Below, piece after piece: positions 1 to 54,558 of a stretch of 64,000 bases of DNA. Position 1 is the stretch's first letter. Every line of letters starts with the position of its first letter. Origin of the DNA: an uncultured Acidobacteriota bacterium (GTDB lineage Bacteria; Acidobacteriota; Thermoanaerobaculia; Multivoradales; UBA5704); NCBI GenBank assembly GCA_963700145.1, contig OY969474.1, positions 5,216,001 through 5,280,000 of the forward strand. The letters run 5' to 3'. The notes beneath the pieces are model-generated. The model ran no database searches. It saw only the letters and a program-made list of their open reading frames with translations, and was not told the origin of the DNA. A program made the translations under genes and the position numbers.

Positions 1-3351
<3,351 letters not shown>

Positions 3352-11792: not shown

Positions 11793-11808
11793 AGAGCACC
11801 CAAAGGAC

Positions 11809-11844
11809 GTCATCCTGAGCGCAGCGAAGGATTTGGGCGGGGGG
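11809..11844 (+). repeat. REP-like family A, copy 2
   Basis: GTCATCCTGAGCGCAGCGAAGGATTTGGGCGGGGGG between trpD and trpC. Confidence 0.85.
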
Positions 11845-11849
11845 TAGCC

Positions 11850-32875: not shown

Positions 32876-32928
32876 TCAGGCGCCGGCGGTTCCGCCGGCC
32901 CCCTCCGCGAAGGCCGCCGGAAGGCCGG

Positions 32929-33201
32929 GAAGGTCATCCGGAGACCCGGGAAAGCTATCCCGGGTCTCGGGAAAGTTATCCGGACCGCCGGGAAAGCTAT
33001 CCGAGCCATCGGGAAAGCTATCCGGACTGTCAGGAAAGCTATCCGGAACATCGGGAAAGCTATCCGGGCTGTCAGGAAGGCTATCCTGGAGGTCGGGAAA
33101 GCTATCCGGACCGTCAGGAAAGTTATCCGGGACGTCGGGAAAGCTATCCGGACCGTCGGGAAGACGATCCGGAGGGTCGGGACGACTTCCGAACCGCCCG
33201 G
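32929..33201. repeat. 21-bp tandem array, about 13 units, consensus GAAAGCTATCCG-N6-CGG
   Basis: Units start every 21 bp from 32929 to 33181; reads RESYPxx on the plus strand and DSFPDxP on the minus strand. Confidence 0.92.
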
Positions 33202-33267
33202 TAGCCTTCCCAGCCTCGTCAGGAGTCCACAGGATACGTGCTACACTGATCCTGTGGAGCATCGGCA

Positions 33268-33498
33268 ATGCGCAACCTGACCCTGGCGATCGAGGACGAG
33301 GTGCTGGAGGGCGCCCGCCGGCTGGCGCTCGAACGTGGAACGACCGTCAATCAGCTCGTCCGCGACCATCTGGCTCATCTGGTGGCCCGCGAAGACCGCC
33401 GCCGCGCCGCCGCCGAGCGTCTGAAGCGCGCCATGCAGGAGGAGCTCACCGAGGTCGGCCCCCGCACCTGGACCCGCGAGGACCTCCATGCGCGGTGA
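33268..33498 (+). CDS. RHH/CopG-like antitoxin
   Basis: MRNLTLAIEDEVL...GTTVNQLVRDHL...WTREDLHAR. Confidence 0.85.
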   Translation: MRNLTLAIEDEVLEGARRLALERGTTVNQLVRDHLAHLVAREDRRRAAAERLKRAMQEELTEVGPRTWTREDLHAR

Positions 33499-33934
33499 GG
33501 CGCCGGCCTTCGTCGACACCAACATCCTCGTCTACGCCTTCGACAGCAGCGACCCGGCCCGCCACGGGCCCGCGGCGGACCTCCTCTCTCGCCTCATGGA
33601 CGAGGACCGCCTGCGCCTCAGCGTGCAAGTGCTCCAGGAGCTCTACGTCACGATGACGCGCAAGGCCCGCCCCGCGTGGACCCCGGACCGCGCGCTCGCG
33701 GCCCTCGACGACCTCGCCGCCTGGCCGGTCGTCGCCAACGATTTCGCTCTCGTCCGCGAAGCGATCCTCCTCTCACGCGACGCCGCCTTGTCCTTTTGGG
33801 ACGCCCTGATCGTAGCCGCCGCCGCCCGCAGCGGCGCGGCCACCCTCTACACCGAAGACCTCAACGACGGCCAAGTCCTCCGCGGCGTGCGCGTCGTGAA
33901 CCCCTTCACCGCTCAAGCCGTCTCGGGCGCCTAA
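33488..33934 (+). CDS. PIN-domain toxin (VapC-like)
   Basis: FVDTNILVYAFD, QVLQE, SFWDALIVAAA, LYTEDL and VNPF motifs. Confidence 0.92.
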   Translation: MRGEAPAFVDTNILVYAFDSSDPARHGPAADLLSRLMDEDRLRLSVQVLQELYVTMTRKARPAWTPDRALAALDDLAAWPVVANDFALVREAILLSRDAALSFWDALIVAAAARSGAATLYTEDLNDGQVLRGVRVVNPFTAQAVSGA

Positions 33935-34112
33935 GAACTCTTGGTCTTCGACCCCCGACAAACCCGCGCCCGCGAGATCGCTCGGCGATGGTCTGACGGT
34001 GCACCTCGTGTACGGCCGAACGCTTAACCGTCTCCCTCCTCTTGGTTCCCCCGCCTCTGCCTTCGAATAGAGTACTCTGCAATCAGCCGGCTACGCCCAC
34101 TGGAGGTCACGC

Positions 34113-35027
34113 ATGAAGCATGACAGGCAGCTACGCCTCATTCTGGTGTTTACACTTCTCCTGGGTGTATCGCTGCGCAGCGATGCCGGAGATGAGCTCT
34201 ACCGATATCGTGTCATTGGGAAAGTCAGCACTTCGGATTTAGCCAACATGGCTACCACCACCGCTATTCCTAGCGTGGTCCACAGTATCGAAGTGCTGCT
34301 CGACACCCAGGTAAAGCAACATCCATCGATTGCCAACACCGCCGAGGTCATCGACCTGACGCATTTATTGACTGGCCTTGATGACATGGCCGCTGACATC
34401 AATAGAGATCTGCCGCCGTCTGACGACGACATGAAAGATCTTGAAACTGTTGGTAGGGGTACGTGGGCGGCTGTGGACAGGATCGCGGTGACCGAGAGTC
34501 AGCCGCGCCCGAGCGCGACGCCGCGGCACGTTTCCGAGACCGACTGGGACACAGCCCGCCGCGCTGGAACACGCATTGCGATCGGGACGGTAATCGGCCG
34601 CGGCATGCCGAACCCCCTTGGAGTCTTTGGTGCACTCACTTTCTCGTCGACCCCAACGTCGAAGAAAGCCGATTACCCGGCGGCGCCTTCCACTCCGGGC
34701 GCGTCCTCTGGGGCTCACGAAAGACCTGATCATGAGGTTTTTCGTGGAGATGCTGACAAAGGTCGAATCGAGAGAATGGGAACGCTAGCCTTTATCTACG
34801 TGTCAGAGCCTTCCTCGGACGTGCAAATCGCTGCCCAAATAGCTAAGGCTAAGGCTGTTATCGCCAGGCGGAGTGGGATCCCCCGATCAGGTGCTCTCGT
34901 CGCCAGCATCGCTGACGGTGCTACCGAACCGGAGTTCCTGAGCGGCGCCGCATTCGGTGTGATAGCTGCATTGGTTGCCTTCATGGCAACGAGGGCGTTG
35001 GTGCGCAGAAGAACCTGGCCGGTTTAG
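34113..35027 (+). CDS. hypothetical exported protein with C-terminal membrane anchor
   Basis: GGAGG SD, N-terminal signal peptide, C-terminal hydrophobic helix followed by RRR; lower GC. Confidence 0.6.
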   Translation: MKHDRQLRLILVFTLLLGVSLRSDAGDELYRYRVIGKVSTSDLANMATTTAIPSVVHSIEVLLDTQVKQHPSIANTAEVIDLTHLLTGLDDMAADINRDLPPSDDDMKDLETVGRGTWAAVDRIAVTESQPRPSATPRHVSETDWDTARRAGTRIAIGTVIGRGMPNPLGVFGALTFSSTPTSKKADYPAAPSTPGASSGAHERPDHEVFRGDADKGRIERMGTLAFIYVSEPSSDVQIAAQIAKAKAVIARRSGIPRSGALVASIADGATEPEFLSGAAFGVIAALVAFMATRALVRRRTWPV

Positions 35028-35049
35028 TGCCACGGCAATTTGGCAAGCC

Positions 35050-35573
35050 TCGTGCCGGGAATGCCTGGCCTGGGTGATGCGGGCGGCGTTGTGCAGAGCC
35101 ATCGCCAAGTCGAGGCTGTAGATGCCGCTGGCCTCCAGGGGCAAGCGCGCGTGCCGGACCTGCTTGGTCAGAGGCCGGACGAGCTGACGGTGCCTGGCGG
35201 CGTCATTCGAGAACTCGAGCCGCTCGCGCTCGCCGCCGGGCGGCTCGACCACGACGGTGAGGGAGCGGGCGCTGACGTCGATGCCGGCGAGCTGGAGGAG
35301 TGGTTTCACCGCGGCCTCCTTTTGGCTAACCTGGCTTTCCGGTCCCCCGACCCTGCGCCTTCGCCAACCCAGCTTGTGGATGCAGCTTCCGGGGCCTCAG
35401 AGACTCCACGGCTTGGACGAAGAGGGCGGGGGCCGATCTAACGCACAGGCTCGGTGGCCTCAGGCGTGCCAACGGCCTTCCCCGGAAGGCTGCCGTGATC
35501 CTAAGCTCCGTTCAGAGCGGCTGCGGCGCGCCCAGCGCTGCGGCCAGGTAACTGCAAGGCGGAATATACAAGG
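35050..35573 (-). mobile_element. truncated IS110-family element: upstream non-coding end plus N-terminal transposase fragment (GTG at 35309)
   Basis: AGIDVSARSL...LEASGIYS (DEDD/RuvC-like N-terminus) with AGGAGG SD; about 260 bp of structured upstream non-coding sequence. Confidence 0.75.
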
Positions 35574-35578
35574 CGACC

Positions 35579-36727
35579 ATGGAAACGCCCTCTCTCCCTG
35601 CGGGTTTTCCGGAAAAGCTTGTCCCGTTGTTCCGCGAGCGCTTCGAGTTCCATCTGACCAACCCACTCGTAAGCCCGCATCAGTACCGACTGTTCAAGGA
35701 TTGCGAGCGGGCTCAGCGCGCTTTGTCGGCCGTCCGTGTCTATCTCGACACAAATCACTGGATACGGCTTCGCCAGGCGCATCGCGGCCTCGAATGCAAC
35801 GAGAACTATGTACGGCTTCTTGAACTCCTTCGGCGGCTGACCAAAGCGCGTACAGTTGTCGTCCCGGTCTCCGATCAGCTCATCACGGAACTCTGCCACC
35901 AAGCTGATCTTGCGACGCGCACAATCACCGCATCGCTCATTGACGAGTTGAGTGATGGCGTCACGATCGTGGGCTTCGATCGCCGCGCCGTACTCGAGGT
36001 GCTTGAATGGGCCCATGCCAGCCTCCACAAAGGAAATCCCCTCCCACTTCTGACGGTTTGGACGACCCTTCCGAACGCCCTTCAATCGCGCGAGTACCAC
36101 CTTGATGGCGCTGACCCGGCACTCTCAGCGGCGTTTACCAAGACCATCGAGGACATCAACACTGCCTTCCGTCTTAGCGACCTCGTCAAGAGTCTCGACA
36201 CTCTCACCTTTCGCGCGACCGACAGTCAAGCATTCGCACTCGCGCTCACCGCTAACAAGGAGAACGAACAGCAGGGCGGGCGACGGTTTGAAGACCTCTT
36301 CCACGAGGAGGCAGATCGCTACCTGACCATGATCGTGCCGAAGATGCCCCCGGAAGTGACTCTAGGGCTCGAGCGGCTTGTTGCCCACTGTAACGCAGCT
36401 GCCGCCGATCTTTCCGACAGCATTAGGATTGTGTTCTGGGCACAGCACCGCGGCGGCTTTCATCCCCGGTCACTCCCTGGCCTTCGCATCATTGCCGGCT
36501 GCGCCAGCAGGATCACGACAGAGCCGAGGCGCAAGTTCAAGCAAGGTGATCAGGGCGACATCTTTCACGCTTACGCGGCTCTTCCTTACTGCAATGTCTT
36601 TCTCACTGATGCCTCAACGCGGCACCTTGTAACCACGCCGCCAACCGATCTGGCCTCGCGATACAATTGCACGGTACTCGACGACCCCACTGAAGCGGCC
36701 GATCACCTTCAGCGGCTGGTCGCCTAG
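35579..36727 (+). CDS. hypothetical protein with PIN-like motifs
   Basis: VYLDTNHWI near the N-terminus and GDIFHAYAALPYCNVFLTD near the C-terminus. Confidence 0.65.
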   Translation: METPSLPAGFPEKLVPLFRERFEFHLTNPLVSPHQYRLFKDCERAQRALSAVRVYLDTNHWIRLRQAHRGLECNENYVRLLELLRRLTKARTVVVPVSDQLITELCHQADLATRTITASLIDELSDGVTIVGFDRRAVLEVLEWAHASLHKGNPLPLLTVWTTLPNALQSREYHLDGADPALSAAFTKTIEDINTAFRLSDLVKSLDTLTFRATDSQAFALALTANKENEQQGGRRFEDLFHEEADRYLTMIVPKMPPEVTLGLERLVAHCNAAAADLSDSIRIVFWAQHRGGFHPRSLPGLRIIAGCASRITTEPRRKFKQGDQGDIFHAYAALPYCNVFLTDASTRHLVTTPPTDLASRYNCTVLDDPTEAADHLQRLVA

Positions 36728-36762
36728 CTCATACGCCGTTATGCGATTTGAGGAGTCGGACT

Positions 36763-37167
36763 ATGAGAATCTGCTGCGGCATTGGAGAGGAGCAGGAGAG
36801 GGAAGTGGAGCGCATTGCGCGGCTCATGCTCGATGATTGGGTGCTTTTCTCACTTGACAACACCGACTATGGCTCCCGACAGGAGCACCTGGACCTCAAG
36901 CTCGGCGAATATGGAGCTTCACCCCTCGACGAGGAGGCACTCCCGCAGGTTCGCACTTGTTTGCTCTGGCACCTCGCGCATGTAGACGCGCACCTTGCCG
37001 ATTCGGATAAGGCTAGGCTGAGAGAGCTACGGGACGGGTCCGCCGCAACGACACCGTCTCGCCGGGTCGCGACGACTACTTCAGAAGACTTGAGAGGGAA
37101 GTGGAGAGGAGCTTCTCCGAGAAGCGACTCAGCAGCTTCCGCCGTCGGCGTCTTGCGAGCGAGCTAA
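36763..37167 (+). CDS. hypothetical gene-cassette protein
   Basis: GAGGAG SD just after a GTTATGC core site; followed by an attC-like site. Confidence 0.55.
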   Translation: MRICCGIGEEQEREVERIARLMLDDWVLFSLDNTDYGSRQEHLDLKLGEYGASPLDEEALPQVRTCLLWHLAHVDAHLADSDKARLRELRDGSAATTPSRRVATTTSEDLRGKWRGASPRSDSAASAVGVLRAS

Positions 37168-37200
37168 ATGCTCTTTTACTCGGCTTCCGCCGGTGAGGGC

Positions 37201-37260
37201 GCATAACACACACCTCCACCGGGCGGCTGGCGCCGCCGGTGAGGCGACGATGCGTTATGC
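37201..37260 (+). other. integron attC-like recombination site (59-base element)
   Basis: GCATAAC ... GTTATGC complementary ends 60 bp apart; inner CCTCCACCGG/CCGGTGAGG pairing with one extrahelical base. Confidence 0.75.
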
Positions 37261-37325
37261 GGCGCTCGGACCGACTTTAGAAGGTGGCAGTAAGGGTTTG
37301 TCGAGCAACGAGGTATTCTCAGTCC

Positions 37326-37541
37326 ATGAGCCCTGAACTGCTCGAACAGGCTCTTCGGCTGAGTGCTGACGATCGGTTGGAGCTCATTGAGGCGCTGTGG
37401 GGCACGCTCTCGGAGGAAGGGATACCGGTCACGGCCGAAGAGCGCGCCCTCCTCGATGCCCGGCTTGCTGATCTGGAGGCCAATCCAGACGATCAGAGCC
37501 CCTGGCCAGAGGTCCGCGCGCGCCTCGAGCACCGTCGTTGA
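37326..37541 (+). CDS. addiction-module antitoxin (TIGR02574-like)
   Basis: ALRLSADDRLELIEALWGTL...LDARL...PWPEVRARL. Confidence 0.85.
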   Translation: MSPELLEQALRLSADDRLELIEALWGTLSEEGIPVTAEERALLDARLADLEANPDDQSPWPEVRARLEHRR

Positions 37542-37612
37542 GCCTTTCCGTCTTGGTCCGTCCAGCCGCGCCACGGACCTGCTTTTCTGCGGCTTGCCTG
37601 AGGGAGGTCAGC

Positions 37613-38065
37613 ATGCGATCCGCTTCCCTAGTGGTTATCGCCAGCTTGCTGGCGCCGGTGAGCGCAGCGGCACAAACCACCTCGGTGTCGGCGGGTGACA
37701 CGGTCCGGATCTGGGCCTCACATCCAGAGCTTCGCGGTGCGCGGTCGGCTGTTCACGCCGTCACAGAGGATTCCTTGGACCTTGTGTTGCCCGCTGGCGG
37801 CGCCGCGGTCACTTCAGTGGCATGGGTTGACATCCGCCGACTGGAGGTGCAACGAGGACGGCATTCACGCTGGCGTAAGGCACTCCGGTGGGGCCTTGCG
37901 GTCGGGCTGGGAAGTGCGGTGGCGGCAGGGGGTCTCACGAATAACCCCAGTGATCGCGAATTGACGGTCCCCCTCGCGGGCTGGGCAGGCTTCGGGGTCG
38001 GTGCAACACTTGGCAGCCTTCGTGATCCTACGCGATGGGTTACGGTCCCGCTCCCTCGACCTTGA
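37613..38065 (+). CDS. hypothetical exported/membrane protein
   Basis: GGGAGG SD, signal peptide ending AAA-Q, Gly-rich hydrophobic segments. Confidence 0.6.
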   Translation: MRSASLVVIASLLAPVSAAAQTTSVSAGDTVRIWASHPELRGARSAVHAVTEDSLDLVLPAGGAAVTSVAWVDIRRLEVQRGRHSRWRKALRWGLAVGLGSAVAAGGLTNNPSDRELTVPLAGWAGFGVGATLGSLRDPTRWVTVPLPRP

Positions 38066-38084
38066 GCTTGGCACCGGCGTCCTA

Positions 38085-38157
38085 CTACTTCCCCTCCTCC
38101 AACTCCATCTTCAGGCGAAGGACTTGGGGAGGTCCTTGAGGCGCCGGCGGGGACGGT
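38085..38157 (-). repeat. degenerate copy of the 3' end of the site-2 protease gene (48084-48140 plus ~48234-48247)
   Basis: CTACTTCCCCTCCTCCAACTCCATCTTCAG... matches the gene end at 48084. Confidence 0.85.
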
Positions 38158-38188
38158 CCTCAAGAGCTAACATAGGGCCTGCGGAAGC

Positions 38189-38425
38189 ATGCCTACCGTC
38201 CTGAGAGTCGGTCCCTACCGCCTCTTCTTCGTCTCACAGGACCGTGGGGAGCCTCCGCATGTGCACGTGCGGCGGGAGAACAAGGTGGCGAAGCTCTGGT
38301 TGGATCCGCTCGCCCTGCAGAGCGCGGGCGGCTACAGCCGCTCGGAGCTCAACACGATCGCCGCGATGGTGCAGGAACACCGCGAGGAGCTACTGGAGAG
38401 CTGGTATGAATTCTTTGGTCGTTGA
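38189..38425 (+). CDS. DUF4160-family protein (putative TA component)
   Basis: MPTVLRVGPYRLFF...EPPHVHV...AKLWL...WYEFFG. Confidence 0.88.
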   Translation: MPTVLRVGPYRLFFVSQDRGEPPHVHVRRENKVAKLWLDPLALQSAGGYSRSELNTIAAMVQEHREELLESWYEFFGR

Positions 38426-38723
38426 GGCCCAAGAGCCCCGCGCGAGGGACATCGCCGTCGGCGACGACAGCTTGATGGTGCACCTCGTGGACGGGCGGAC
38501 GCTGATCGTCCCTCTTCTCTGGTTCCCGCGCCTGTGGCACGGCACCGACGCCGAGCGCAAGAACTTCGAGACCTTCGGTGACGGAGCGTTCATCCACTGG
38601 CCGGACTTGGATGAGGACCTGAGCGTCGCCGACCTCGTGGCAGGCGTGCGCAGCGGCGAGACCCCCGAGTCGCTACGGAAGTGGCTCGATCGGCGGGCGG
38701 CTCAGAGCGGGCGAAGCGAGTAG
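38406..38723 (+). CDS. DUF2442-family protein (putative TA component)
   Basis: LVDGRTLIVPLLWFPRL...IHWPDLDEDLSV. Confidence 0.88.
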   Translation: MNSLVVEAQEPRARDIAVGDDSLMVHLVDGRTLIVPLLWFPRLWHGTDAERKNFETFGDGAFIHWPDLDEDLSVADLVAGVRSGETPESLRKWLDRRAAQSGRSE

Positions 38724-38734
38724 TCCAGCGCCCT

Positions 38735-38783
38735 ACGGCCAAGTCTTGCGCGGCGTGCGCATCACGAACCCCTTCACTGCTCA
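38735..38783 (+). repeat. degenerate copy of the vapC 3' end (33867-33915)
   Basis: ACGGCCAAGTCTTGCGCGGCGTGCGCATCACGAACCCCTTCAC. Confidence 0.85.
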
Positions 38784-38809
38784 GCGGCCCGCACCCGGAG
38801 GGCGCCCTG

Positions 38810-40084
38810 ATGTTGCCACTTGACGCGCGAGTCTTGGCCGGAGTGACGTTGCTGGCCGTCGTCGCGATCATCGGTAGCTGCGCCAGGGGCGAGGCCCCGA
38901 CCCCTGCCACGACGCTCGTCGTGGCCGATCGGGTCGATCATCTCGACGTCCTCGCCCGCGAGCCCATGGTGGTCGAGCATCCCGACGGCACGCTGTTCGT
39001 GAGCGGCTACGGGGAATCGGTGCCGACGCTCTGGAAGAGCCGCGACCGTGGCGCCACTTGGACGCGCGTCGACGTCGGCACCGAGGCGAACGGGGCCATC
39101 GGCAACTCCGACGTGGAGCTGGCGGTGGCTCGCGACGGGACCGTCTATTTCGCCACGATGGTTTTCGACCGCGAGAAAGGTGAGGGCAGGAGGATCAGCA
39201 TCGGCGTCAGCAAGGACGTGGGCGCGACGTGGTCGTGGACGCCGCTCTCCGCAACGCGGTTCGACGATCGGCCGTGGGTCGAAGTGTCGGCGGGCGGAAC
39301 GGTCCACGTCATCTGGAACGACGGCGGCGGCGTCTGCCACGCCGTCAGCGAGGACGGCGGCAACACCTGGAAGGAGCGGCCCAGGATTCATCCACAGGGT
39401 GGATCGAGCCACCTCGCCGTGGGCCCGAACCGCGAGCTGGCGGTGCGTGTGACGCCGTTGTCGGCGTCGGGCAACAGGTTCGACGAGGGCGTCGATCTCG
39501 TTGCTGTCAGCGTCGACGGCGGCGCGACATGGCAGAAGCACGTGGCACCAGGGCGGCGCGAGTGGAGCCCGCTGTTCGACACGACGGTTACGCCGCCGCG
39601 TTTCATCGAACCGCTGCTGCCGCGATGGGTGGAGCCGCTGGCGTGGGACGGCCAAGGCGCCCTCTATTCCTTCTGGACGAACCGCGAGGGGCTCTGGCTG
39701 GCGCGCTCGGCCGATCGCGGTTCGACGTGGAAGACTTGGCGCCTCGCCGCGAGCCGCGACGTCCTCTACTTCCCTTATCTCGTGGCGCGCGACCGAGGAG
39801 ATCTGGCCGCGACGTGGTTTTCGGGTCAGAGCGAGGCGCTCCAGGCGCATGTCGCCAGGTTGGAGGTCGGTGACCCGGACGCGCCGCCGCGGATGATCGA
39901 GTCGGCGCCGTTCCGGATCGACACTTGGATCGCCCCTCCGGAAGAGCCGCCCGTTCGAGACACTGGCGGCGAATACCTCGCGATGGCGTTTCTCCGCGAT
40001 GGCGGATTGGCGGTGGTCAGCCCCATCCAGAACAAGGGCGCCCAGCGCTTCGGGTTTTCGTGGCGGAGGATCGAGGCGCGTTGA
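38810..40084 (+). CDS. BNR/Asp-box repeat (sialidase-like beta-propeller) exported protein
   Basis: Repeated S-x-D-x-G-x-T-W boxes; signal peptide or lipobox IGSC. Confidence 0.8.
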   Translation: MLPLDARVLAGVTLLAVVAIIGSCARGEAPTPATTLVVADRVDHLDVLAREPMVVEHPDGTLFVSGYGESVPTLWKSRDRGATWTRVDVGTEANGAIGNSDVELAVARDGTVYFATMVFDREKGEGRRISIGVSKDVGATWSWTPLSATRFDDRPWVEVSAGGTVHVIWNDGGGVCHAVSEDGGNTWKERPRIHPQGGSSHLAVGPNRELAVRVTPLSASGNRFDEGVDLVAVSVDGGATWQKHVAPGRREWSPLFDTTVTPPRFIEPLLPRWVEPLAWDGQGALYSFWTNREGLWLARSADRGSTWKTWRLAASRDVLYFPYLVARDRGDLAATWFSGQSEALQAHVARLEVGDPDAPPRMIESAPFRIDTWIAPPEEPPVRDTGGEYLAMAFLRDGGLAVVSPIQNKGAQRFGFSWRRIEAR

Positions 40085-40085
40085 C

Positions 40086-41936
40086 TCAGGGCGGGCAGAC
40101 CACGCCCGCCGGCCGGACGAAGCGCACCTCGGACACCTGGTCGCCGTCGAGGCCAAGGGACAGCTCCAGGGGGCCGCGGTCGCAGTCCAGCTTCACGACG
40201 GTCCGGGTGGTTCCGTCGCCCTCCAGCGGCTCATCGGCCCGGCAGGTCCCGTACTGCAGGCGCACATCCGCGAGGAGGGCGCCGAGGGCGGCCCTGTCCA
40301 GGCTCGGCGCCGGACGGAGGTCTTGGCTGCCGCGCACCACGGCCCCCAGCACCGCGTCCACCGCGCGGCTCATCCCCTCTGAGAGGGGCCGGCCGCCGGT
40401 GACGGACAGCGCCTGCACTTTGGGCGGCCGCGTGGGAGCGAGGGTGAGCGTGGCGTCGAGCCACCCCTTGTCACAGCTCATCCGGAAACGGCCGCGCAGA
40501 GCGTTCTCCGCCTTGACATCACCCATGCGGCACGCTCCCAGCCCGTCGCGGAGCTTCGCGATCTCCTCCTTGCGCTCCTGCAGGGACCGATCGAGGAAGA
40601 GGTTCTCGGCGGCCAGCGCCTGCGCCCGGGCGTCGTCCCAGACGTCGAGGAGGCGCGCGGTCTTCTCGATCGCCTGGAGCAGGGCCGGCGCCGGGACGGG
40701 GCGGCGGGGCTCGAGGGCGCCGGTGTCGGCGAGGATGGCCAGCATGTCGCGGGTGAGGAGCCCGGCAGGAGCGTAGGTCGCGTTCGCCATCGCGAACACG
40801 CCGACGCCGTGCTCGGGGAGCCAGCGCATGTCGGAGCCGAATCCGGGCAGGCCGCCGGAGTGGCTGACCGCTTTACGGAAGCGACAGTCTCCGGTGGAGA
40901 TCAGGCCGAACGCGTAGCTCGCGAAACGGACGGTCAGCGGCGCGCCAGGCGCGGTGCGGTTCACGAAGAGCGCGGGAAAGGCGGCGCCCTGCTGCATCTC
41001 CCGCAGGGTGCGGCGTAGGACCGGCGGCCTCTCCGGGTCGTCGCGCGGCGGCCAGGCGGAGAGCATCAGCGCCACCCAGCGGCCCAGGTCGCGGGCCGAG
41101 GTGAGCAAGCCGCCGATGGCGCCGAAGGCCCCGTCGCCGAGCGGTACCTCGGCCGCAAATTCCTTGTCCTGCCGCCGATAGCCGCCGGCAAGGCGCTCGC
41201 GGGGCACCTCCCGAGGATCCCAAAAGGTCGAGGTCATCCCCAGCGGTTTCAGGATCTCGCGATCGACGTAGTCCTGATACCGCATCCCGGAAGCGCGGGA
41301 CACGACGCGGCCCAGGATCGCGAAGCCGTAGTTCGAGTACTCGAAGGCGGTGCCGGGCGCCGTCGAGAACGGGAGCCCCCGGCGCAGCCAGGCGGAGAGC
41401 TCCTCCTCCGAAACGGCGAGCTGCCGGTCGCCCCAGGGGTTGTCCTCGGGAAAGCCGGCGGTGTGGCTCAAGAGCTGGCGGATGGTCACCGGCCCCGAGT
41501 CCTCCGTCGGCGGCGGGGGAGCGGCAAGCTCGGGGACGTGGCGGGCCACCGGGTCGTCGAGGGCGAGCTTGGCCTCGTCGCGCAGCTTGAGGACGGCGAG
41601 CGCGATGAAGCTCTTCGTCATCGAGGCGATGCGGAACACGGTGTCGGCATCGACGGGCGCCTTCGTCCCGATGTCGCGGTGTCCCAGGCCGCCGACCAGC
41701 ACGAGCTCGCCGTCGACGATCACTCCGTAGGCCAGGCCGGGGAGGCGCAGCTCCCGCATCTCCTCCGCCAGCTTCGCCTCGATCACCGGGAAGGCCCGGA
41801 CGAGCTTCTCGCGCCGTGCCGGGTCGGCGAAGCGGGCCGCGGGCACGTCCTCGCCCGCCCGGGTGCCAGCCGCGCTCACCAAGAAGAGGACGGCAAGAGC
41901 GCCGGCGCGCCGGCGGCAGGCACATTCATTTTTCAT
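40086..41936 (-). CDS. serine hydrolase, beta-lactamase/penicillin-binding family
   Basis: FRIASMTK, LLSHTAG, YSN and HSGG motifs; signal peptide. Confidence 0.88.
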   Translation of the reverse strand: MKNECACRRRAGALAVLFLVSAAGTRAGEDVPAARFADPARREKLVRAFPVIEAKLAEEMRELRLPGLAYGVIVDGELVLVGGLGHRDIGTKAPVDADTVFRIASMTKSFIALAVLKLRDEAKLALDDPVARHVPELAAPPPPTEDSGPVTIRQLLSHTAGFPEDNPWGDRQLAVSEEELSAWLRRGLPFSTAPGTAFEYSNYGFAILGRVVSRASGMRYQDYVDREILKPLGMTSTFWDPREVPRERLAGGYRRQDKEFAAEVPLGDGAFGAIGGLLTSARDLGRWVALMLSAWPPRDDPERPPVLRRTLREMQQGAAFPALFVNRTAPGAPLTVRFASYAFGLISTGDCRFRKAVSHSGGLPGFGSDMRWLPEHGVGVFAMANATYAPAGLLTRDMLAILADTGALEPRRPVPAPALLQAIEKTARLLDVWDDARAQALAAENLFLDRSLQERKEEIAKLRDGLGACRMGDVKAENALRGRFRMSCDKGWLDATLTLAPTRPPKVQALSVTGGRPLSEGMSRAVDAVLGAVVRGSQDLRPAPSLDRAALGALLADVRLQYGTCRADEPLEGDGTTRTVVKLDCDRGPLELSLGLDGDQVSEVRFVRPAGVVCPP

Positions 41937-42021
41937 TTACGTGCGATCTGCCGCGGAGCGTAGCATGGCGAGTCGGAAGTCCGCGCGCCTCGAACGCCGT
42001 CGCTGAGCTGAGTGGCGCTCC

Positions 42022-42074
42022 CTACTTCCCCTCCCCAACTTCATCTTTAGCGCGAAGAACTTGAGGAGGTCTTT
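42022..42074 (-). repeat. second degenerate copy of the site-2 protease 3' end
   Basis: CTACTTCCCCTCCCCAACTTCATCTTTAGCGCGAAGAACTTGAGGAGGTCTTT. Confidence 0.88.
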
Positions 42075-42345
42075 CTCGTCCGCGAGGCGATCCTCCTCTC
42101 ACGCGTCGCCGTGCTCTCTTCTGGGAAGCCCTCACCGTCGCCGTCGCCCGCAGCGGCGCGGACCCTCTACGCCGAAGAACTCAACGACGGCCAAGTCCTC
42201 CGCGGCGTGCGCATCACGAACCCCTTCACCGCTATCTCGGGCGCCTAAGAACTCTTCGTTCTCGACCCCCGACAACCTGCGCCCGCGAGATCGCCTCGGT
42301 GGCGCGGTCTGACGGTGCACCTCCGTAGACGGCCGAACGCTAACC
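42074..42345 (+). pseudogene. degenerate copy of the vapC 3' half plus downstream ~95 bp (33748-34029)
   Basis: Colinear match with indels from TCTCGTCCGCGA to GGCCGAACGCTAACC. Confidence 0.9.
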
Positions 42346-42529
42346 TGTCGACTACGATGCTACAAAATCTCTGGGCTAGCCATGGATCTGTTTGAGGCCG
42401 AGCAACATTACCACTGTACCACGGAATGGCTCGGACTACCGACACCCTGCACCTCAAGTAAAGGCAATAGGGGGCGCGTCGTCTCCTCCGCGCTTCATAC
42501 CATCGGTCACCTCGCCCGCCCCAGACTGC

Positions 42530-45277
42530 TCAGAGTATTACTCCGCGCGCCATGAAGACGCCTACCATGCCAGGCATGTACTCCTCGACTTCACCGATCT
42601 TCTTAAACCCAATGTCTTCGAAGTAGCCCCGCAAGCCTCCTTGAGTCACGATTTGCAACTGCCGAATTCCTTGGGTCTCGGACCAGTTTACGACCTCCGA
42701 TATAAGACGTCTACCGATACCCCTTCCGCGAAACGCTGGTAGAACTCCAAGGAACCAAATAAAAGCAGATCGTCCATCGACCTCGTGCTGAGCCTCGATA
42801 GGTGAAATGTCGCGGAAACCGAGCACGCGGTCACGACTCCATCGGATAAACTCAACATACCCTACGACCTCCCCTCCAATACGGGCGACGCGGACTCCTT
42901 CAGGAAAAACGGCCAAACGGCTCCTTAAGTCCTCCAATTTGGCCGCAACTCGGACACTAAGGAGCGATTCCATGCCTGCCATCCCTAAAAGATCCTCGTC
43001 TCTCGCCGGATCCACAACGACCATGTCACGTAGCCGCCTCCGCTCAGTTGCGGCTGGATCTACCGAAAACCTAAGCCCTAGGGCCTCGTCCTCCTCATCA
43101 ACCTCGCGTTCGACAGAATAGAGATATCGTCGCTCGAGAGGTTCCTCAGTCCGTCCTTCGCTCATCATCGCTAGAGCTCCGGCCCTCACTATAAAGGGGT
43201 CGAGTGCAAACGCCCGTCCTGGCAGCGCAACGGTGATTGTCACAAGCGCCCCGGCGGACAGTACGGGATTGAGGCGAAACAACTCGAAGCCGCGCAGTAA
43301 GTCGATACAATTTTGCCTTCGAAAGCTCAAGCGAAGTTTGACTTCCTCCCCTGTTGCTCGTCGTGAACCTAGGCTGAGCCGGCATAACCAGCAATTCTGA
43401 CCCATGTCCGCAAGGTCGGCCGGCAGCGCGGACTTTCGCACTTCATCGTAGCAGCGAAGCGCGAGCTCGCCGATACTAAGGGGTTGACCAGGAGCGCCGA
43501 CGTGAAAATAGAGGTGATCAATTCCGTCAGGTGCTACAACTACTCCATCTAATGCATAGAGTCCGTAATATGTGCCTTCAGAGTCGATTATACTTGTAAA
43601 CTTCCCGCGCGTGACAGAGACATTTTCTGTCCGCAGGCGGGTTAAGTGATCGCAACCCTCGAACAGCACAGCACTCATTGCTCCCGTGTCGAGGTCCCGA
43701 AATCTCTCGGCAATCGCCGAACCTATCGGTCCCAGCGAGCGGGGTTTGCGCGCCCTTGGCGCCTCGGCACTAAGTCGGCTCTCTGCTCTTTGTGCAATCG
43801 CAAAAAACCCAGCGAACCTATTCAAATAGAGCACGAGACCATAATCACTAGACCATGGCTTAACAAAGAATGTAGGGGCAACAGAGCGCCCAACTTCTCT
43901 CTCTAGATCCGTCCAATAAGCGTCCCATTGCTGCGGGCGTTCTCGGTTCAGTTCATATAGTTTTTCCAGTCGCTCCTTGAAAAGTTCTCTAACGAACACT
44001 CCCGGCAGAGTCGCACGCTCAAACGATTGTTCGTCGCGCAGGGAGCCGATCAAGTGAGCGCTCGAAAGGTCCGCTTCATTTGCAAATACAAAGAGCCCAC
44101 TTGCATTGAGCTGTTCTGTGGCGAGAAGGCTACGCCCCACAGCTCTTGCGAGCGCCACTGCGCGCGGCGTCGCGGACAGCATGCGGCGATACACACGCGC
44201 TAGCTCTTGGGTGTCGAAGAATACAAGCCCTAGCCCATGGAAAGCTGGCGCGCGTATCTTCTGGCCGTGAAAGGCGGCGAATTGCACAAGTTCTCCTGCC
44301 ACAGAGTCACGGCTGCCGTATATAAAGGTCAAGCCGGGAATAAGGACTTCGCCGTCGCGGGAGCTTCCGACCGGTGGGACGACTTCCAAAGCGTCGCGCA
44401 GCGTCTCCTGCAGAAGTCGTGAGTGCCGTCCAAGCATTCGCGACCATGCCCATGGAAACAGGGTTTTCGCCCAGCCCGAGCCGAGCAGAGGAGCGCCCAC
44501 AATCCCGACGTGATGGAGGCCATGGTTAACACTACTGAGATGCTGCTTGAGCAGTTCGGGCAGGATTTTGAGCGCGATAATTCCTCCAAGACTATGGCCA
44601 ATTAAGATCGTGGTGCCGGGGAAATCCGCAATAAGAGAGCCGATTTTGCTCGCGATGTCGCGCGCGATCTGGTCAAACTCGCCGCGCGACGTCAAAAGGC
44701 CATGGCCATAAGTTAGGCTGCGAATACAACTGACGTTGGGCTCGCGAAGCAATACGACCGGTAGAAAGCCCCAAGCGGCAGCACCGTTGCTGAACAGGCC
44801 GTGGAGTAGGATGACTTGCTGTTGCGGTTGCGGCAATCGCGCCGCTGCGTCTCGGGTTCTAATCGAAAGCAACTCGACGCCCGGTAGGGTAGCATCAGAG
44901 CCTTCTACAGAAATAATGTAGTCTTGTCTGAGTTCGCTGCGGTTTGGCCAGCTGATTCGGAACCGAAGCTTCGCTACGACAGCATAGGCGCAGGCTTGCC
45001 AAGCCAGCAAAAGCAGGAGCAAGAACAACAGGCGCACAGGCAGCAGTTGTACTTCTGAAGCTCCCCCTGCTCGAAGGAAGGCGATAGCGCAGGAATAAAA
45101 CCCCGCGAGCACGAGAACGGTAAGCGTCGCGAGCGCGCCACCGATCATGAGCTGCTGGATACCACGTAGGGTAGCGCGGCTCTGGAGGCGCTTCGCGAGA
45201 CGCGCAAGTGCTTCCGCCGTGATTGCTTCTTTCTCAACAGGTTGTCTGTGGGCATATGCCCAAGCGAGCGCCGCTAG
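42530..45277 (-). pseudogene. 3' part of IS-interrupted gene: TM helices, alpha/beta hydrolase, unknown domain, GNAT (intact 872-aa ORF from 45148)
   Basis: LLHGL and GHSLGG lipase motifs; C-terminal FLGVLPAFRGRGIGRRL...YFEDIGF GNAT motif; frame open up to the IS junction. Confidence 0.75.
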
Positions 45278-46547
45278 CAGGCTGCTGAAAAACCCCGGTT
45301 CGCGCTACCCTTGCAGGCCATGCGAGGGAAAGCGCGCGAGCAGAGGACGTTGTTGATGGTGGGGTCGTTGGAGGAGCGGATTCCGGCGGCGCATCCGATC
45401 CGGCGGATCAAGGGGCTGGCCGACCGGGCTCTCGGGCAGTTGAGTGAGGTGTTTGCGGTGATGTACGCCGAGACGGGGCGGCCGTCGGTGCCGCCGGAGC
45501 GGCTGCTCAAGGCGCAGCTGCTGATCGCGCTGTTTTCGGTGCGGAGCGACCGGCAGTTTTGCGAGCAGCTCGAGTACAACCTGCTGTTTCGCTGGTTTTT
45601 GGATCTGGAGCTCGACGAGCCGTCGTTTGACGCGAGCACGTTTTCACGCAACCGGGAGCGGCTGATCCGGCACGAGGTGGCCGAGCGGTTTTTGGCGGCG
45701 ATCGTGGCTGAGGCGAGCGTGCAGCGGCTGCTGTCGAGCGAGCACTTCTCGGTGGATGGGACGCTGATCGAGGCCTGGGCGTCGATGAAGAGCTTCCGGC
45801 CCAAGGACGGGCCGCCGGGCGGAGACGCCAACGGCTGGAGCGATTTCACGGGGACGAAGCGGAGCAACGAGACGCACGCCTCGACGACCGACCCGGAAGC
45901 GCGCCTGGCCCGCAAGGGGGATGGGCACGAGGCGAAGCTCTCGTTTTCCGGCCACGCTCTGATGGAGAACCGCAACGGATTGTTGGTGGACTTCGTGGTG
46001 GCCCAGGCCGATGGGTTCGCCGAGCGCCGCGAAGCTCTGGGTCTGCTCGCGCGGCTCGAAGGCTCGCGGCGCAAGACGGTGGGCGCCGATAAGAGCTACG
46101 ACACCAAGGGCTTCGTGGCTGCCTGCCGAGAGCTCGGCGTCACCCCCCACGTCACCCAGAATGCCCACCGGCGCAGGCGCTCGGCAATCGACCGGCGAAC
46201 AACGCGCCGTCCCGGCTACCGGATCAGTCAGGTCGTACGGCGGCGAATCGAGACGATCTTCGGCTGGCTCAAGACCTGCGCAGGGCTGCACCGGACCAGG
46301 GTCCGAGGCGTGGCGAGGACGCAGCTGGCCGCCCGCCTCGCCGCCGCAGCGTACAACCTGCTCCGATTAAGTCGCCTGCTTGTGCCGGCATAGCCCAAAA
46401 AGGTCCTGCCCAGCAAAACCAGCGGCGCTCAAACGCGCCCACAAGGCGCCTGTTGCCCTCCCCTTCCACCCGCGCACGCGACATCGCCCGCTCCCAGATC
46501 GCTGTCAGCCTCGCACCCGCCGTTGAAGGCCGTTTCTCAGCGGCCTG
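45278..46547 (+). mobile_element. IS5-family insertion sequence with CTAG target duplication
   Basis: TIRs CAGGCTGCTGAAAAAC / GTTTCTCAGCGGCCTG; CTAG at 45274-45277 and 46548-46551. Confidence 0.93.
45311..46393 (+). CDS. IS5-family DDE transposase
   Basis: GRPSVPPERLLKA, YNLLFRWF, SVDGTLIEAWAS, GADKSYD, RIETIFGW and AAYNL motifs; start may be ATG 45320. Confidence 0.93.
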   Translation: MQAMRGKAREQRTLLMVGSLEERIPAAHPIRRIKGLADRALGQLSEVFAVMYAETGRPSVPPERLLKAQLLIALFSVRSDRQFCEQLEYNLLFRWFLDLELDEPSFDASTFSRNRERLIRHEVAERFLAAIVAEASVQRLLSSEHFSVDGTLIEAWASMKSFRPKDGPPGGDANGWSDFTGTKRSNETHASTTDPEARLARKGDGHEAKLSFSGHALMENRNGLLVDFVVAQADGFAERREALGLLARLEGSRRKTVGADKSYDTKGFVAACRELGVTPHVTQNAHRRRRSAIDRRTTRRPGYRISQVVRRRIETIFGWLKTCAGLHRTRVRGVARTQLAARLAAAAYNLLRLSRLLVPA

Positions 46548-47265
46548 CTAGAGAGAGCCCATGAGCAGCTTTAAGCAAACCGAGGGGCAGCTCGTAGCCA
46601 TAGAGAGTAGACGTGCCGCTGGGTGCTAGGAATCCATAGGGCAATTGTACGATGGCATATCCTAACGATAGAGCGAAGAGCGAGCGCGACTGCAAGACAC
46701 TTCGATATGCGAAGGCCAGGCGTACAAACAGCAGGGAGGTCACCGCCAATTGGAAGGAATAGGCGATTGATAGCATGGCCCGTGAGTAAGCTAACGTGGG
46801 GATAAATGCGAGGGGAAGAAGAGCGGCAAGGAAGCCGTAGAGGATTCCTTTTTCAGTCGACCATTTCAAGAATCGCTGCCACGTCGAAGTTAGCGACTCG
46901 AGTGGCAATATGAGGCGATCTCTATTCTGCGGCAGTTCTGAAATCTCCAGCTCCAAGCTGGCGCGACGCAACCATATATTTGCAAAGCCGAGGATCAGAG
47001 TTACACCGAAGTGCCATACGAATGTGGTGGGTAGGTACCGAGTGAGACAAGTGGCAGAGGTCTGAGCGCCTGGGTCTGACAGAGGCGCGGCAATAGGCTG
47101 GACGACGTAGTAGACTGAGAGCGCAATCCAAACTCGCATGAACTCAATGAGGTGATTGCGAATCGCCCGATGCTCACCGACGAGACTTCGCTGCTCAGAA
47201 ACGTGCCACAATAGGAAGCTAATGGCCAAACTGAGACCTGCGAGAAGAAAGTATCCCGTCATCAA
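46548..47265 (-). pseudogene. 5' multi-pass membrane part of the IS-interrupted gene
   Basis: Several hydrophobic helices; joins in frame (HGLSL-AALAWAY) across the CTAG duplication. Confidence 0.75.
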
Positions 47266-47953
47266 TAGCTCCCAGTGCAGTGGTGCGCGTCGCCGTGCGG
47301 CTCAGCTCAGATGAAGCTATGCTACCATGCATAGCTGCGATGCTAAAGTAGCTCGTCATCGCATGTATGGGCGGTGAGGTGGTGGCGCCTTTGGTTGGCC
47401 CGCGAAGGCTTGAGTCTTGAACGAGAGCGCTAGGAGATAAGGCGACCCTCCTCGGCGCGCTTCGCGTGGACCTCCGACCGCGGGATATTCTCGGGTTCGC
47501 CTACAGATCCGAAGGCTGGCCGCGAGGAGGTAGATGCTCCCGTACCTGGGAGGTCTCTTCACGACTCTGTGTCCCGATCGCGCTGAGCCGAAGAGGTTGG
47601 CGTAGTGAAGTTCAGCCCATCTTCGGCGCCTTTCCCCACGCCGTCAGTGCAGAGCGAAGAGCATCCCGTCCATGCAGCTTGCGCGACACGCCCCTCGATC
47701 TCCCTCGCCGGTGCATCGTCTCGCCTTGCTGATCTGGAGCCCGACTTCGACGATCAGAGCTCCTGGCCGCAGTCCACACGCGGCGCGCGCGGCTCGAGCG
47801 CCGCCGGTGGGCGGTCTTCGAGCCTGCGGAACTCGACCTGGAGGTATCAGCGCAAGTTTGGCTGAGTGGAGCTTTCCGTCGGCAGTCGATTAGGCTCTCA
47901 CGTGACGTCCGACGCGCGCACTGAAGAGATGCTTGGCCCAGGTTTCCGATCAC

Positions 47954-48055
47954 CGATTTCCATACTTTGTCCGGTATCGGGGTGCTCAGAGACTCCGTGG
48001 TGGTGCTGGCCTGTGTCCACGGCAGGCGCGGATTCTCGTCGGGTCCGGGCCCGCT
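47954..48055 (+). pseudogene. RelE/ParE toxin C-terminal remnant
   Basis: RFPYFVRYR, then after a frameshift VVVLACVHGRR. Confidence 0.6.
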
Positions 48056-48083
48056 TGCGGCAGGCCAGTAGCGCGGTCCTCGG

Positions 48084-49226
48084 CTACTTCCCCTCCTCCA
48101 GCTCCATCTTCAGCGCGAAGAACTTGAGGAGGTCTTTTAGGGAGAGGATCCCGAGCAGCCTGTCGCCGTCCACAACGAGCAGGCGCGAAGCGCCGGTGCG
48201 GCTCATGCGGGAGAGGGCGCGGATGGCGTCGGTGCCGGCGGGGACGGTGTTCTCGGCGTCGCAGCGGTCGGCGATGGCGCCGACGGTCTGGCGCTGCCAC
48301 TCCTCGCGCGGCAGCTCCTTGATCCGCCGCGTCGTGATGCACCCGGTCAGCCGCCCCGCCTCGTCGACCACCGGGTAGAACTTGAAGTGGTGGCGGTAGA
48401 CGTAGTCGTCCACCAGCTCCTGCACCGAGATCTGGCGCGGCACCGTCACCGGGTCGGGGTGCATGAAGCGCTCGACCGGCTCGCCTTCGAGCGCCCGGCG
48501 CAGGAGGAGCTGCTGGTAGGACATGCGCGCCGCGTTGCGCAGGAACATGCCGATCAGGAACGACCAGACGCCGCCGAAGATCTCGCCCTGGAGGACCTGC
48601 CAGACGCCCCAGGCGATGAGTGCGAAGCCGAAGGCCGAGCCGATCGCCGAGGAGATCCGCGTCGCCTGCCGCAGGCTGCCCTTCCAAGCCCAGAGGGCCG
48701 AGCGCAGCACCCGGCCGCCGTCGAGCGGGAAGGCGGGGATCAGGTTGAAGGCGACCAGGACGCCGTTGATCAGGCCGAGGTAGCCGACGACAGCGACGAC
48801 GGGCGCCGGCCAGCCGGCGGCGCGGCCGAGGAGCGCCACGCCGCCGCCCGCGAGCGCCAGCGCCACCGACACCACCGGCCCCGCGATCGCCACCAGGAAC
48901 TCCACCTTCGGCGTGCGCGGCTCCTCCGCCATCTCGGCGACGCCGCCGAAGAGGAAGAGGGTGATGCCGCGCATCCGCACGCCGAGCCGCTGCGCGGTCA
49001 CCGCGTGCCCGAGCTCGTGGAGGAGGACCGAGGCGAAGAGGCCGAGCGCTCCCGCTGCCCCCATCGTCCAGGCGAGCACCGGCGACAGGCCGGGGACGAG
49101 CGTCGGGAAGGCGCGGGTCGCCAGCGACCAGGTGACGAGCAGAAAGACGACGAACCAGGAGAGGTCGAGCCGGATCGGGATGCCGAAGGCCCGGAAGAGC
49201 TCCAGCCGGCGGGTGAAGAGGCTCAC
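48084..49226 (-). CDS. site-2 protease (M50) with CBS domains
   Basis: HELGH, FNLIPAFPLDGGR and a C-terminal CBS pair. Confidence 0.93.
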   Translation of the reverse strand: MSLFTRRLELFRAFGIPIRLDLSWFVVFLLVTWSLATRAFPTLVPGLSPVLAWTMGAAGALGLFASVLLHELGHAVTAQRLGVRMRGITLFLFGGVAEMAEEPRTPKVEFLVAIAGPVVSVALALAGGGVALLGRAAGWPAPVVAVVGYLGLINGVLVAFNLIPAFPLDGGRVLRSALWAWKGSLRQATRISSAIGSAFGFALIAWGVWQVLQGEIFGGVWSFLIGMFLRNAARMSYQQLLLRRALEGEPVERFMHPDPVTVPRQISVQELVDDYVYRHHFKFYPVVDEAGRLTGCITTRRIKELPREEWQRQTVGAIADRCDAENTVPAGTDAIRALSRMSRTGASRLLVVDGDRLLGILSLKDLLKFFALKMELEEGK

Positions 49227-54533: not shown

Positions 54534-54558
54534 GCGTAGCGAAGGATCTGGGTGGGGG
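54524..54558 (+). repeat. REP-like family A, copy 5
   Basis: GTCATCCTGAGCGTAGCGAAGGATCTGGGTGGGGG; contains the M20 gene stop. Confidence 0.85.

Follow-up and report, generated by a model that had tools for sequence, protein, structure and literature searches.

How does a row of unrelated genes come to stand between two ordinary chromosomal genes when the row contains no integrase? The question is raised by an island in a window of 64,000 nucleotides (nt), the whole stretch of DNA analyzed here (positions 5,216,001 to 5,280,000 of contig OY969474.1, assembly GCA_963700145.1), from an uncultured Acidobacteriota bacterium of soil whose genome is a complete single contig of 5,455,767 bp. The island lies between the gene for a VapC toxin and the gene for an M50-family metalloprotease with a CBS pair (a 'site-2 protease'), and pieces of both genes recur inside it. 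A preliminary description, made from the sequence alone, had proposed that alternative versions of one variable locus have been stacked here in tandem, a proposal that is supported by the relics of flanking genes found in each unit and by the variant alleles found in relatives. We consider it probable, at roughly 60%, that the interval from BrkB and vapBC to the protease gene is a gene-transfer hotspot and that its 14-kb content represents alleles of related lineages joined head to tail, each addition by one homologous exchange in a conserved flank and one illegitimate join.

Copies of the flanking gene ends

The repeats were found by self-BLASTN of the window and by a separate repeat search. 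The vapBC pair (33268 to 33934, + strand) forms the inner left flank of the hotspot and the protease gene its conserved right flank. These genes and the copies of their ends, all observed directly, are as follows (window coordinates).

33268 to 33498, + strand: vapB-like antitoxin gene (Pfam DUF6364, E 3.7e-5, below the cut-off)
33488 to 33934, + strand: PIN/VapC toxin gene (Pfam PIN, E 1.3e-14; weak NCBIfam VapC-family match)
33748 to 34059, + strand: B1, the true vapC 3' end (to 33934) and a DUF2442-like remnant (33932 to 34059); the reference for B2 and B3
38085 to 38141, - strand: A1, a 57-nt copy of the protease-gene 3' end including the stop codon
38735 to 38783, + strand: B2, 49 nt from the interior of vapC, in the spacer upstream of the BNR gene
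42022 to 42074, - strand: A2, a 53-nt copy of the protease-gene 3' end, fused directly to B3
42074 to 42345, + strand: B3, a decayed vapC 3' end (to about 42248) and a DUF2442-like remnant
48084 to 49226, - strand: M50-family metalloprotease gene with CBS pair (Pfam Peptidase_M50 and CBS), its true 3' end being A3 (48084 to 48141)

Pfam agreed with the gene identities given in the preliminary description (PIN/VapC, M50 and CBS protease, DUF4160 and DUF2442), and self-BLASTN bore out the recurrence of both gene ends in their original orientation, all A and B copies being direct repeats. Against A3, the copy A1 is 89.7% identical (38085 to 38141 against 48084 to 48141, E 9e-14) and A2 is 92.6% identical (42022 to 42074 against 48084 to 48137, E 2.7e-14). 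B1 and B3 share 84.6% identity over 286 columns (33748 to 34029 against 42074 to 42345, E 1.9e-79), and B2, whose translation is GQVLRGVRITNPFTAQ, matches B1 at 87.8% (38735 to 38783 against 33867 to 33915, E 6e-10) and B3 at 93.6% (38735 to 38781 against 42187 to 42233, E 1e-12). The direct fusion of a protease end to a vapC end at 42074 is also real: A2 adjoins B3 with zero spacer and a junction microhomology of 1 nt.

Some of the boundaries needed correction. The first protease-end copy, described as 38085 to 38157, ends at 38141. The stretch from 38735 to 38783, described as a vapC 3'-end copy, does derive from vapC and is an internal piece without the gene's last 19 nt. At 42074 to 42345, 175 nt with four indels are indeed a decayed vapC 3' end, and the remaining ~97 nt are a DUF2442-like remnant. 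Copies of the flank ends were found nowhere else in the 5,455,767-bp genome; since every copy maps solely to the locus, a generic genome-wide repeat is ruled out. A genome-wide scan for local repeats (same-strand repeats of 45 to 600 nt, at least 500 nt apart, within 40-kb chunks) returned 871 pairs, 81 of them with a length of at most 300 nt and an identity of at least 84.5%. The 20-kb bin with the locus held 6 of these 81, the highest number of all bins, the runner-up holding 4.

Inside the gene-end copies lies a second layer of relics, which the preliminary description had not seen: DUF2442 remnants follow the vapC copies, and Unstab_antitox remnants precede the protease-end copies. The latter comprise one intact gene and two remnants.

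37284 to 37541, + strand: intact Unstab_antitox (TIGR02574-type) antitoxin gene (PF09720, E 3.2e-10; NCBIfam TIGR02574, E 2.6e-16, above the cut-off)
41982 to 42008, + strand: 27-nt Unstab_antitox 3'-end remnant, 89% identical to 37517 to 37543, with translation ..ARLERRR*
47722 to 47812: decayed Unstab_antitox remnant in cargo 3, matched by 37461 to 37543 at 72.5%

On the left-hand side, the start of a DUF2442-like gene stands directly after the vapC stop codon in units 1 and 3. The remnant in unit 1 (33932 to 34059) is 73% identical to the intact DUF2442 gene (38405 to 38536) and carries the DUF2442 N-terminal motif in shifted frames of its translation; about 55 nt of it are common to G004, one of the genus relatives compared below. 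On the right-hand side, each protease-end copy is preceded by an Unstab_antitox gene or scrap, the intact gene being the right-hand relic-flank gene of unit 1 (no toxin partner was identified for it) and the 27-nt remnant marking the right-hand relic flank of unit 2. Relic order and orientation are right in each unit, with vapC and DUF2442 pieces on the left and Unstab_antitox pieces and the protease end on the right, and each unit resembles a complete allele of the locus, down to inner flanks of its own that have diverged.

The interval in related genomes and strains

Between these borders the island carries the following modules and open reading frames (ORFs).

34060 to 37283: cargo 1, G+C 55-62%, with ORFs at 34113 to 35027, 35579 to 36727 and 36748 to 37167 (all + strand)
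37613 to 38065, + strand: module R, an ORF of 150 amino acids (aa) with a ribosome-binding site and a hydrophobic N-terminus that, by eye, is signal-peptide-like
38189 to 38425, + strand: DUF4160 gene (Pfam E 9e-17)
38406 to 38723, + strand: DUF2442 gene (Pfam E 6e-18)
38810 to 40084, + strand: BNR/Asp-box repeat protein gene (Pfam BNR_2 and BNR), native G+C
40086 to 41936, - strand: gene for a predicted beta-lactamase-fold (AmpH/PBP-like) serine hydrolase of 616 aa (Pfam Beta-lactamase, E 1e-74)
42346 to 47990: cargo 3, a low-G+C block (50-63%)
42530 to 45148, - strand: gene in cargo 3 for an 872-aa alpha/beta-hydrolase and GNAT protein (Pfam, NCBIfam)
46537 to 47265 and 47612 to 47953, - strand: ORFs in cargo 3 with no family match in Pfam or NCBIfam
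47991 to 48083: 93-nt spacer downstream of the protease gene, common to the single-allele relative G003 (BLAST of L006 against the window, and alignment)

We compared the locus of this genome (G000) with those of four other genomes of the genus (G001 to G004), in which the arrangement is as follows.

G001: protease stop codon, 343-nt GYD-domain cassette (PF08734), 21-nt protease-end copy, module R
G002: BrkB, 1.6 kb, protease gene; no vapBC
G003: 2.9 kb, vapBC, 2.5 kb, protease gene; no duplicated ends, a single allele
G004: protease gene, 1.4 kb, 349-nt protease-end copy (92.5%), 3 kb, vapC

BrkB and the M50 protease are conserved in all five genomes, the protease being 79-99% identical at the protein level across the four relatives, and the content between them differs. 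This comparison of the vapC-protease interval, which had been suggested as a check, revealed other subsets or cargos at the same place. The interval measures 4.7 kb in G004 and 14 kb in G000. Duplications of the protease end are present in three of the five genomes (21 nt in G001, 53 and 57 nt in G000, 349 nt in G004) and absent from G002 and G003. The copy in G001 corresponds to only the last 21 nt of A1; it supplies the last six codons and the stop codon of the GYD gene (L009, 5059 to 5400), and GGAG is shared at the junction between the two. The final 93 nt that precede the protease gene in G003 correspond to the right end of cargo 3. Among the compared loci, only that of G004 has an Mrr-type nuclease gene. 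As a separate observation on G004, its displaced 349-nt protease-end copy lies inside an open frame of 132 aa that encodes a CBS pair (Pfam E 2e-16; L005, 7905 to 8303) and might yield a CBS protein of its own.

BLASTN of the island against the four relatives matched only relic and repeat pieces and no main cargo gene. Weak compositional matches dominated when the cargos of the relatives were compared with the window by tblastx in this DNA of high G+C content, and two clear results were kept: the G002 interval matches DNA upstream of vapB in G003, and the matches of L011 and G001 are also clear. L011 is a metagenome contig that runs from the protease gene through GYD and 120 nt to BNR, which there stands 466 nt from the protease gene. 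Orthologues of vapBC are found at the same place in G003 and G004 at ~84% nucleotide identity. Between G000 and G004 vapBC is ~84% identical, whereas BrkB and the protease gene are ~95% identical, which argues that vapBC is itself part of the exchanged region. Extra protease-end copies were found in none of 35 metagenomic protease loci, which were mostly distant (40-59% protein identity) and one of which, L010, reached only 90 nt downstream; ten of the original 45 loci were omitted because the match was cut by a contig end.

We also aligned contigs from public sequencing runs (X1, X2 and X3) to positions 33000 to 49000 of the window, ignoring joints in X3 and X4 where one side was shorter than 30 letters. 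X1 probably stems from the source sample itself and hence is not independent; one of its contigs covers 41899 to 42179 and crosses the A2/B3 fusion with zero mismatches. A 2774-nt contig of X2, from a related strain ~94.5% identical, extends from 38024 through A1, the DUF4160/DUF2442 pair, B2 and BNR. The junction between module R and the protease-end copy is present at 98% identity in G001, another species-level genome, and module R also occurs in contigs of X2 and X3.

The same runs gave direct sight of variants in the population. In one X2 contig the BNR stop codon is 14 nt from the protease stop codon and positions 40086 to 48083 (the beta-lactamase-fold gene, A2, B3 and cargo 3) are missing; in another X2 contig 33946 to 37599, with cargo 1, is replaced by 926 other bases. 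In the X3 strain module R is joined via 9 other bases to the beta-lactamase-fold gene, without A1, the DUF pair, B2 and BNR. A strain of X2 therefore has the BNR module without the beta-lactamase-fold module and the X3 strain the reverse, so that of the three cargos originally distinguished, 'cargo 2' is not one unit; it is a composite of two modules that occur separately. A further X1 contig of 499 nt leads from 42179 back to 33860 across a 33-nt exact repeat at ~3.8x depth, in contigs built from k-mers; given that repeat and the low depth, it is uninformative as a sign of a looped-out circle or of a tandem-duplication junction.

Origin of the array

Under the reading that we favour, an incoming piece of DNA would undergo homologous exchange inside a conserved flank, either in the protease gene or on the vapBC/BrkB side, and its far end would be connected to the resident copy by an illegitimate join with 0-4 nt of microhomology. 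Homology-facilitated illegitimate recombination of a linear fragment could achieve this, as could an end-joined circle followed by a single crossover, and both would leave the same product; we infer this route and the order of events from the structures described above. An illegitimate join inside the 3' end of the resident gene would leave behind a short displaced copy of that end, and an incoming fragment that started within the opposite flank gene would import a piece of that gene, which would give the fusion of protease end and vapC end at 42074. Later imports, deletions and the insertion of an IS5 element would have reshuffled the modules, with toxin-antitoxin genes and their remnants marking old allele borders. 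The gene ends, previously suggested to be homology anchors, are better read as scars of illegitimate joins, their lengths varying among 21, 53, 57 and 349 nt.

The sequence divergence of the relics is informative on where the units came from. Identity is 72% for the antitoxin remnants and 73% for those of DUF2442; B3 is 90% identical to B1, and so is the G004 orthologue; and at 10 of the 23 sites at which B3 differs from B1 it matches G003 and/or G004. Import from diverged lineages fits these values better than recent duplication in place. Cargos 1 and 3 have a G+C content of 50-62%, compared with ~72% for the genome and, in a composition scan, ~72% around the island. Homology-facilitated illegitimate recombination would need DNA to be taken up and RecA to pair it at a one-sided anchor. 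Three Ku genes and ComEC are encoded in the genome (gene presence only), and the three Ku proteins make end-joining plausible in this organism. Between G000 and G004, the protease gene has 13 differences in its last 106 nt compared with 39 in its first 1037 nt, and a maximum-chi-square breakpoint 106 nt from the 3' end (permutation p ~0.008) is suggestive of a crossover inside this anchor gene.

Several points weigh against import followed by joining. The same breakpoint is the best one for G000 against G001, with p 0.38, so that significance is confined to one pair; conservation is unusually high in the final 54 nt of the protease gene, where 89% of the columns are invariant (71% over the gene as a whole; 33 of 1093 sliding windows are as high), and other pairs, too, vary more in the stretch just upstream of this block. 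The inner boundaries of A1 and A2 lie within 4 nt of one another (57 and 53 nt), a coincidence unexpected for independent illegitimate joins that hints at a preferred site or a shared history. Several module borders fall no more than 1-2 nt from stop codons, the BNR border at 40084/40085 recurring in three contexts, and random joins would reach such exact borders only with selection. No complete donor allele with a match to cargo 1 or cargo 3 as its single cargo came to light, and the variant alleles are short Logan metagenome contigs, not complete genomes. Structure alone fixes neither the anchor flank nor the order of additions.

The preliminary description had offered, as an alternative, amplification of the locus followed by replacement of the cargo. 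In this form of events, the interval from vapC to protease would have been duplicated in tandem by unequal illegitimate exchange between sister chromosomes, and the cargo replaced later by double homologous recombination. A head-to-tail fusion of an end to a start is the signature of tandem duplication, B3 is marginally closest to B1 (90%, compared with 87% for G004 and 86% for G003), and internal flank copies would permit unit-by-unit replacement afterwards. We nevertheless regard duplication in place as unlikely and as the less parsimonious account: it needs at least three further replacement events, the inner relic flanks at 72-73% identity are far more diverged than the gene-end copies, and 10 of the 23 differences between B3 and B1 are sites at which B3 has the base of another species. 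Moreover, the junction at 38 kb is no simple end-to-start fusion, having a toxin-antitoxin pair and the internal 49-nt vapC piece in it, and in G001 and G004 the inserts are different, as are the lengths of the duplications around them.

A bolder idea, to which we give slightly less weight than to duplication in place, is that the gene-end scraps are working, portable recombination sites, with the last ~54 nt of the protease gene as a preferred site of pairing or cutting, and that the locus is a self-extending, integrase-free cassette array held by toxin-antitoxin genes. If this were true, the preferred site at the protease end would explain both the 53/57-nt coincidence and the gene-exact module borders, and each internal gene-end copy would let single units be swapped, added or looped out.

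Site-specific integration is a weaker candidate still. All listed island ORFs of at least 50 aa were scanned against Pfam, and no gene of an integrase, a prophage or a conjugative system was found in the hotspot. No tyrosine or serine recombinase was found in the island, the six genomic matches to PF00589 and the two to PF00239 all lying outside it, which supports the integrase-independence proposed earlier. The earlier statement that no integrase or recombinase gene is present thus holds for these two classes and does not extend to transposases, the scan having detected the following two mobile-element genes and no others.

34887 to 35309, - strand: N-terminal fragment of an IS110-type transposase, in cargo 1 (Pfam E 1.3e-4, NCBIfam 3.2e-6, both below the cut-off)
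45274 to 46551: intact IS5-family element of 1278 nt with terminal inverted repeats, bordered by CTAG; transposase at 45311 to 46393, + strand

The IS5-family element, with its own inverted repeats, sits inside cargo 3 and not at a unit border. It is present in eight genomic copies at 99-100% identity, which suggests recent activity, and contig depth is ~30 over it compared with ~3 in the surrounding DNA. In principle, site-specific integrative elements might once have inserted in tandem at the 3' end of the protease gene (and of vapC) and since decayed with loss of their integrases, in which case the gene-end copies would be att scars. Elements that integrate into gene ends and restore them typically leave foreign DNA flanked by direct repeats of the gene's 3' end, the two G000 copies have nearly the same inner boundary (53 and 57 nt), and the protease gene's last 54 nt are conserved as noted. 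Site-specific integration at a fixed att site is nevertheless argued against by the range of repeat lengths among genomes (21-349 nt, with inner boundaries 21, 53, 57 and 349 nt from the stop codon), by an insert that consists of a single 343-nt GYD gene and by the lack of any tyrosine or serine recombinase gene or fragment in the island. In addition, the units carry pieces of the opposite flank gene and its neighbour, which would be unexpected for a mobile element, and none of the 35 more distant protease loci has such copies. We consider the att-scar explanation improbable.

An integron-type array of attC cassettes was rejected as well: the island has no tyrosine recombinase, its modules lie on both strands, and neither the inverted-repeat listing nor the junction sequences showed a recurring inverted repeat at the unit borders (no attC covariance model was run).

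Finally, it is very improbable that the assembler linked the locus versions of several strains into one contig, a worry already raised in the preliminary description: the source looks like a metagenome and the 499-nt X1 contig shows that assemblers can be confused here, yet chimeric assembly is unlikely because public contigs, some of them from other samples, and G001 bridge the junctions (the mismatch-free X1 contig across 42074, the X2 contig from A1 to BNR and the module R/protease-end junction at 98%), and G004 has a 349-nt duplication of its own.

Precedents, cargo and neighbouring features

Unrelated integrative islands can accrete in tandem at one att site, where they stand in a row with direct repeats of the target-gene end between them. 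The present locus differs in having no integrase, no constant att core, some units that are too small and fragments of a second gene. The 'minimal mobile elements' of Neisseria are a case similar to integrase-free hotspots of horizontal transfer between conserved core genes.

An integrase-independent cassette-collecting locus, as which the island was at first described, would not be a new class, since there are published precedents. Oliveira et al. (2017, PMC5635113) describe integrase-free hotspots in which content turns over by housekeeping recombination at flanking core genes without mobile elements. These are like our locus in their conserved flanks, in content that differs between close relatives and in the lack of integrase, phage or conjugation genes; as presented there, however, double homologous recombination replaces the content, whereas here alleles appear to have been added and scraps of the flanks left inside. 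Furuta, Abe and Kobayashi (2010; PMC2853133) describe insertion with long target duplication, in which foreign genes stand between direct repeats that are tens to hundreds of bp long, vary in length and overlap gene 3' ends; the repeats are single-copy in genomes without the insert, and no mobile-element gene is involved. The 53- and 57-nt repeats of G000 and the 349-nt repeat of G004 resemble these, as do the single-copy protease ends of G002 and G003, the variation in repeat length between events and the lack of a mobile-element gene that would account for insertion. The 21 nt of G001 fall short of the repeat length of >30 bp expected for such an insertion, and the insertions considered there are single and of restriction-modification genes, whereas here they would be serial, with cargo not of the restriction-modification type and an imported fragment of the opposite flank.

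Kirchberger et al. (2017, PMC5361080) treat arrays formed by sequential displacement, namely orphan immunity genes of the Vibrio T6SS and displaced 3' ends of Rhs genes, for which homology-facilitated illegitimate recombination was proposed. As in those arrays, modules seem to have been added repeatedly beside a conserved anchor while older pieces were pushed along and kept; the differences from the arrays in that account are that toxin/immunity logic is lacking here, that both convergent flank genes are scarred and that the displaced gene ends are non-functional. The microhomologies (1 nt at 42074, and GGAG at the GYD/protease-end junction of G001) are like those of homology-facilitated illegitimate recombination. 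The locus fits each of the three descriptions in part. Head-to-tail concatenation of whole alleles, with convergent flank ends fused inside and nested relic flanks, was not found in narrow searches of open-access text, and we make no claim that it is unpublished.

Hotspots free of mobile elements are common, and their growth, as opposed to the swapping of their content, is poorly documented. The present locus preserves the joins themselves: a fusion of opposite flank-gene ends, nested relics of older neighbours and, in related strains, intermediate alleles. It can be viewed as a natural record of housekeeping recombination and end-joining piling foreign genes at one site. If the internal gene-end copies guide later exchanges, this would explain how hotspots become modular, and short duplicated gene ends could help to locate integrase-free islands, and to trace their limits, in genomic and metagenomic sequence.

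For most cargo ORFs neither Pfam nor NCBIfam gave a family. The three ORFs listed for cargo 1 matched no family in Pfam, PADLOC or NCBIfam, and module R none in Pfam; a stretch of cargo 1 (35076 to 35572) has a 91% copy elsewhere in the genome. A PADLOC search for defence systems matched none of 14 cargo proteins, and a defence island was rejected on this basis. The intact DUF4160/DUF2442 pair resembles toxin-antitoxin pairs of the DhiT type (NCBIfam toxin_DhiT, E 6.6e-6, below the cut-off). The BNR ORF is listed from 38681, with a likely ATG at 38810 and, by eye, a signal-peptide-like N-terminus, and its stop codon lies 1 nt from that of the beta-lactamase-fold gene. Both genes are of native composition, and the NCBIfam AmpH and class C matches of the 616-aa protein are all far below their cut-offs.

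Some features outside the island were observed in passing. Directly after the BrkB stop codon and upstream of vapB lies an array of 21-nt tandem repeats (32875 to 33210; 11 overlapping 126-nt registers were listed by the repeat search), which is a second variable spot: the 2.9-kb insert of G003 is located here, where G004 has ~400 nt of another sequence. A stretch of ~930-970 nt encoding a DUF1702 domain (49262 to 50229), immediately upstream of the protease gene, is found in G000 and G001 and cleanly missing from G003 and G004, another gene-exact presence/absence difference beside the hotspot. Elsewhere in the G000 genome, outside the window, three copies of a ~50-nt direct repeat stand 15-18 kb apart (4023741 to 4056576) in a region with a tyrosine-integrase fragment (4031971 to 4032174); this may be a classical tandem array of integrated islands, a useful contrast to the locus studied here. 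A partly palindromic repeat family of ~35-50 nt, unrelated to the island, occurs in both orientations at window positions 2510 to 2560, 11807 to 11854, 12629 to 12727 and 54522 to 54558.

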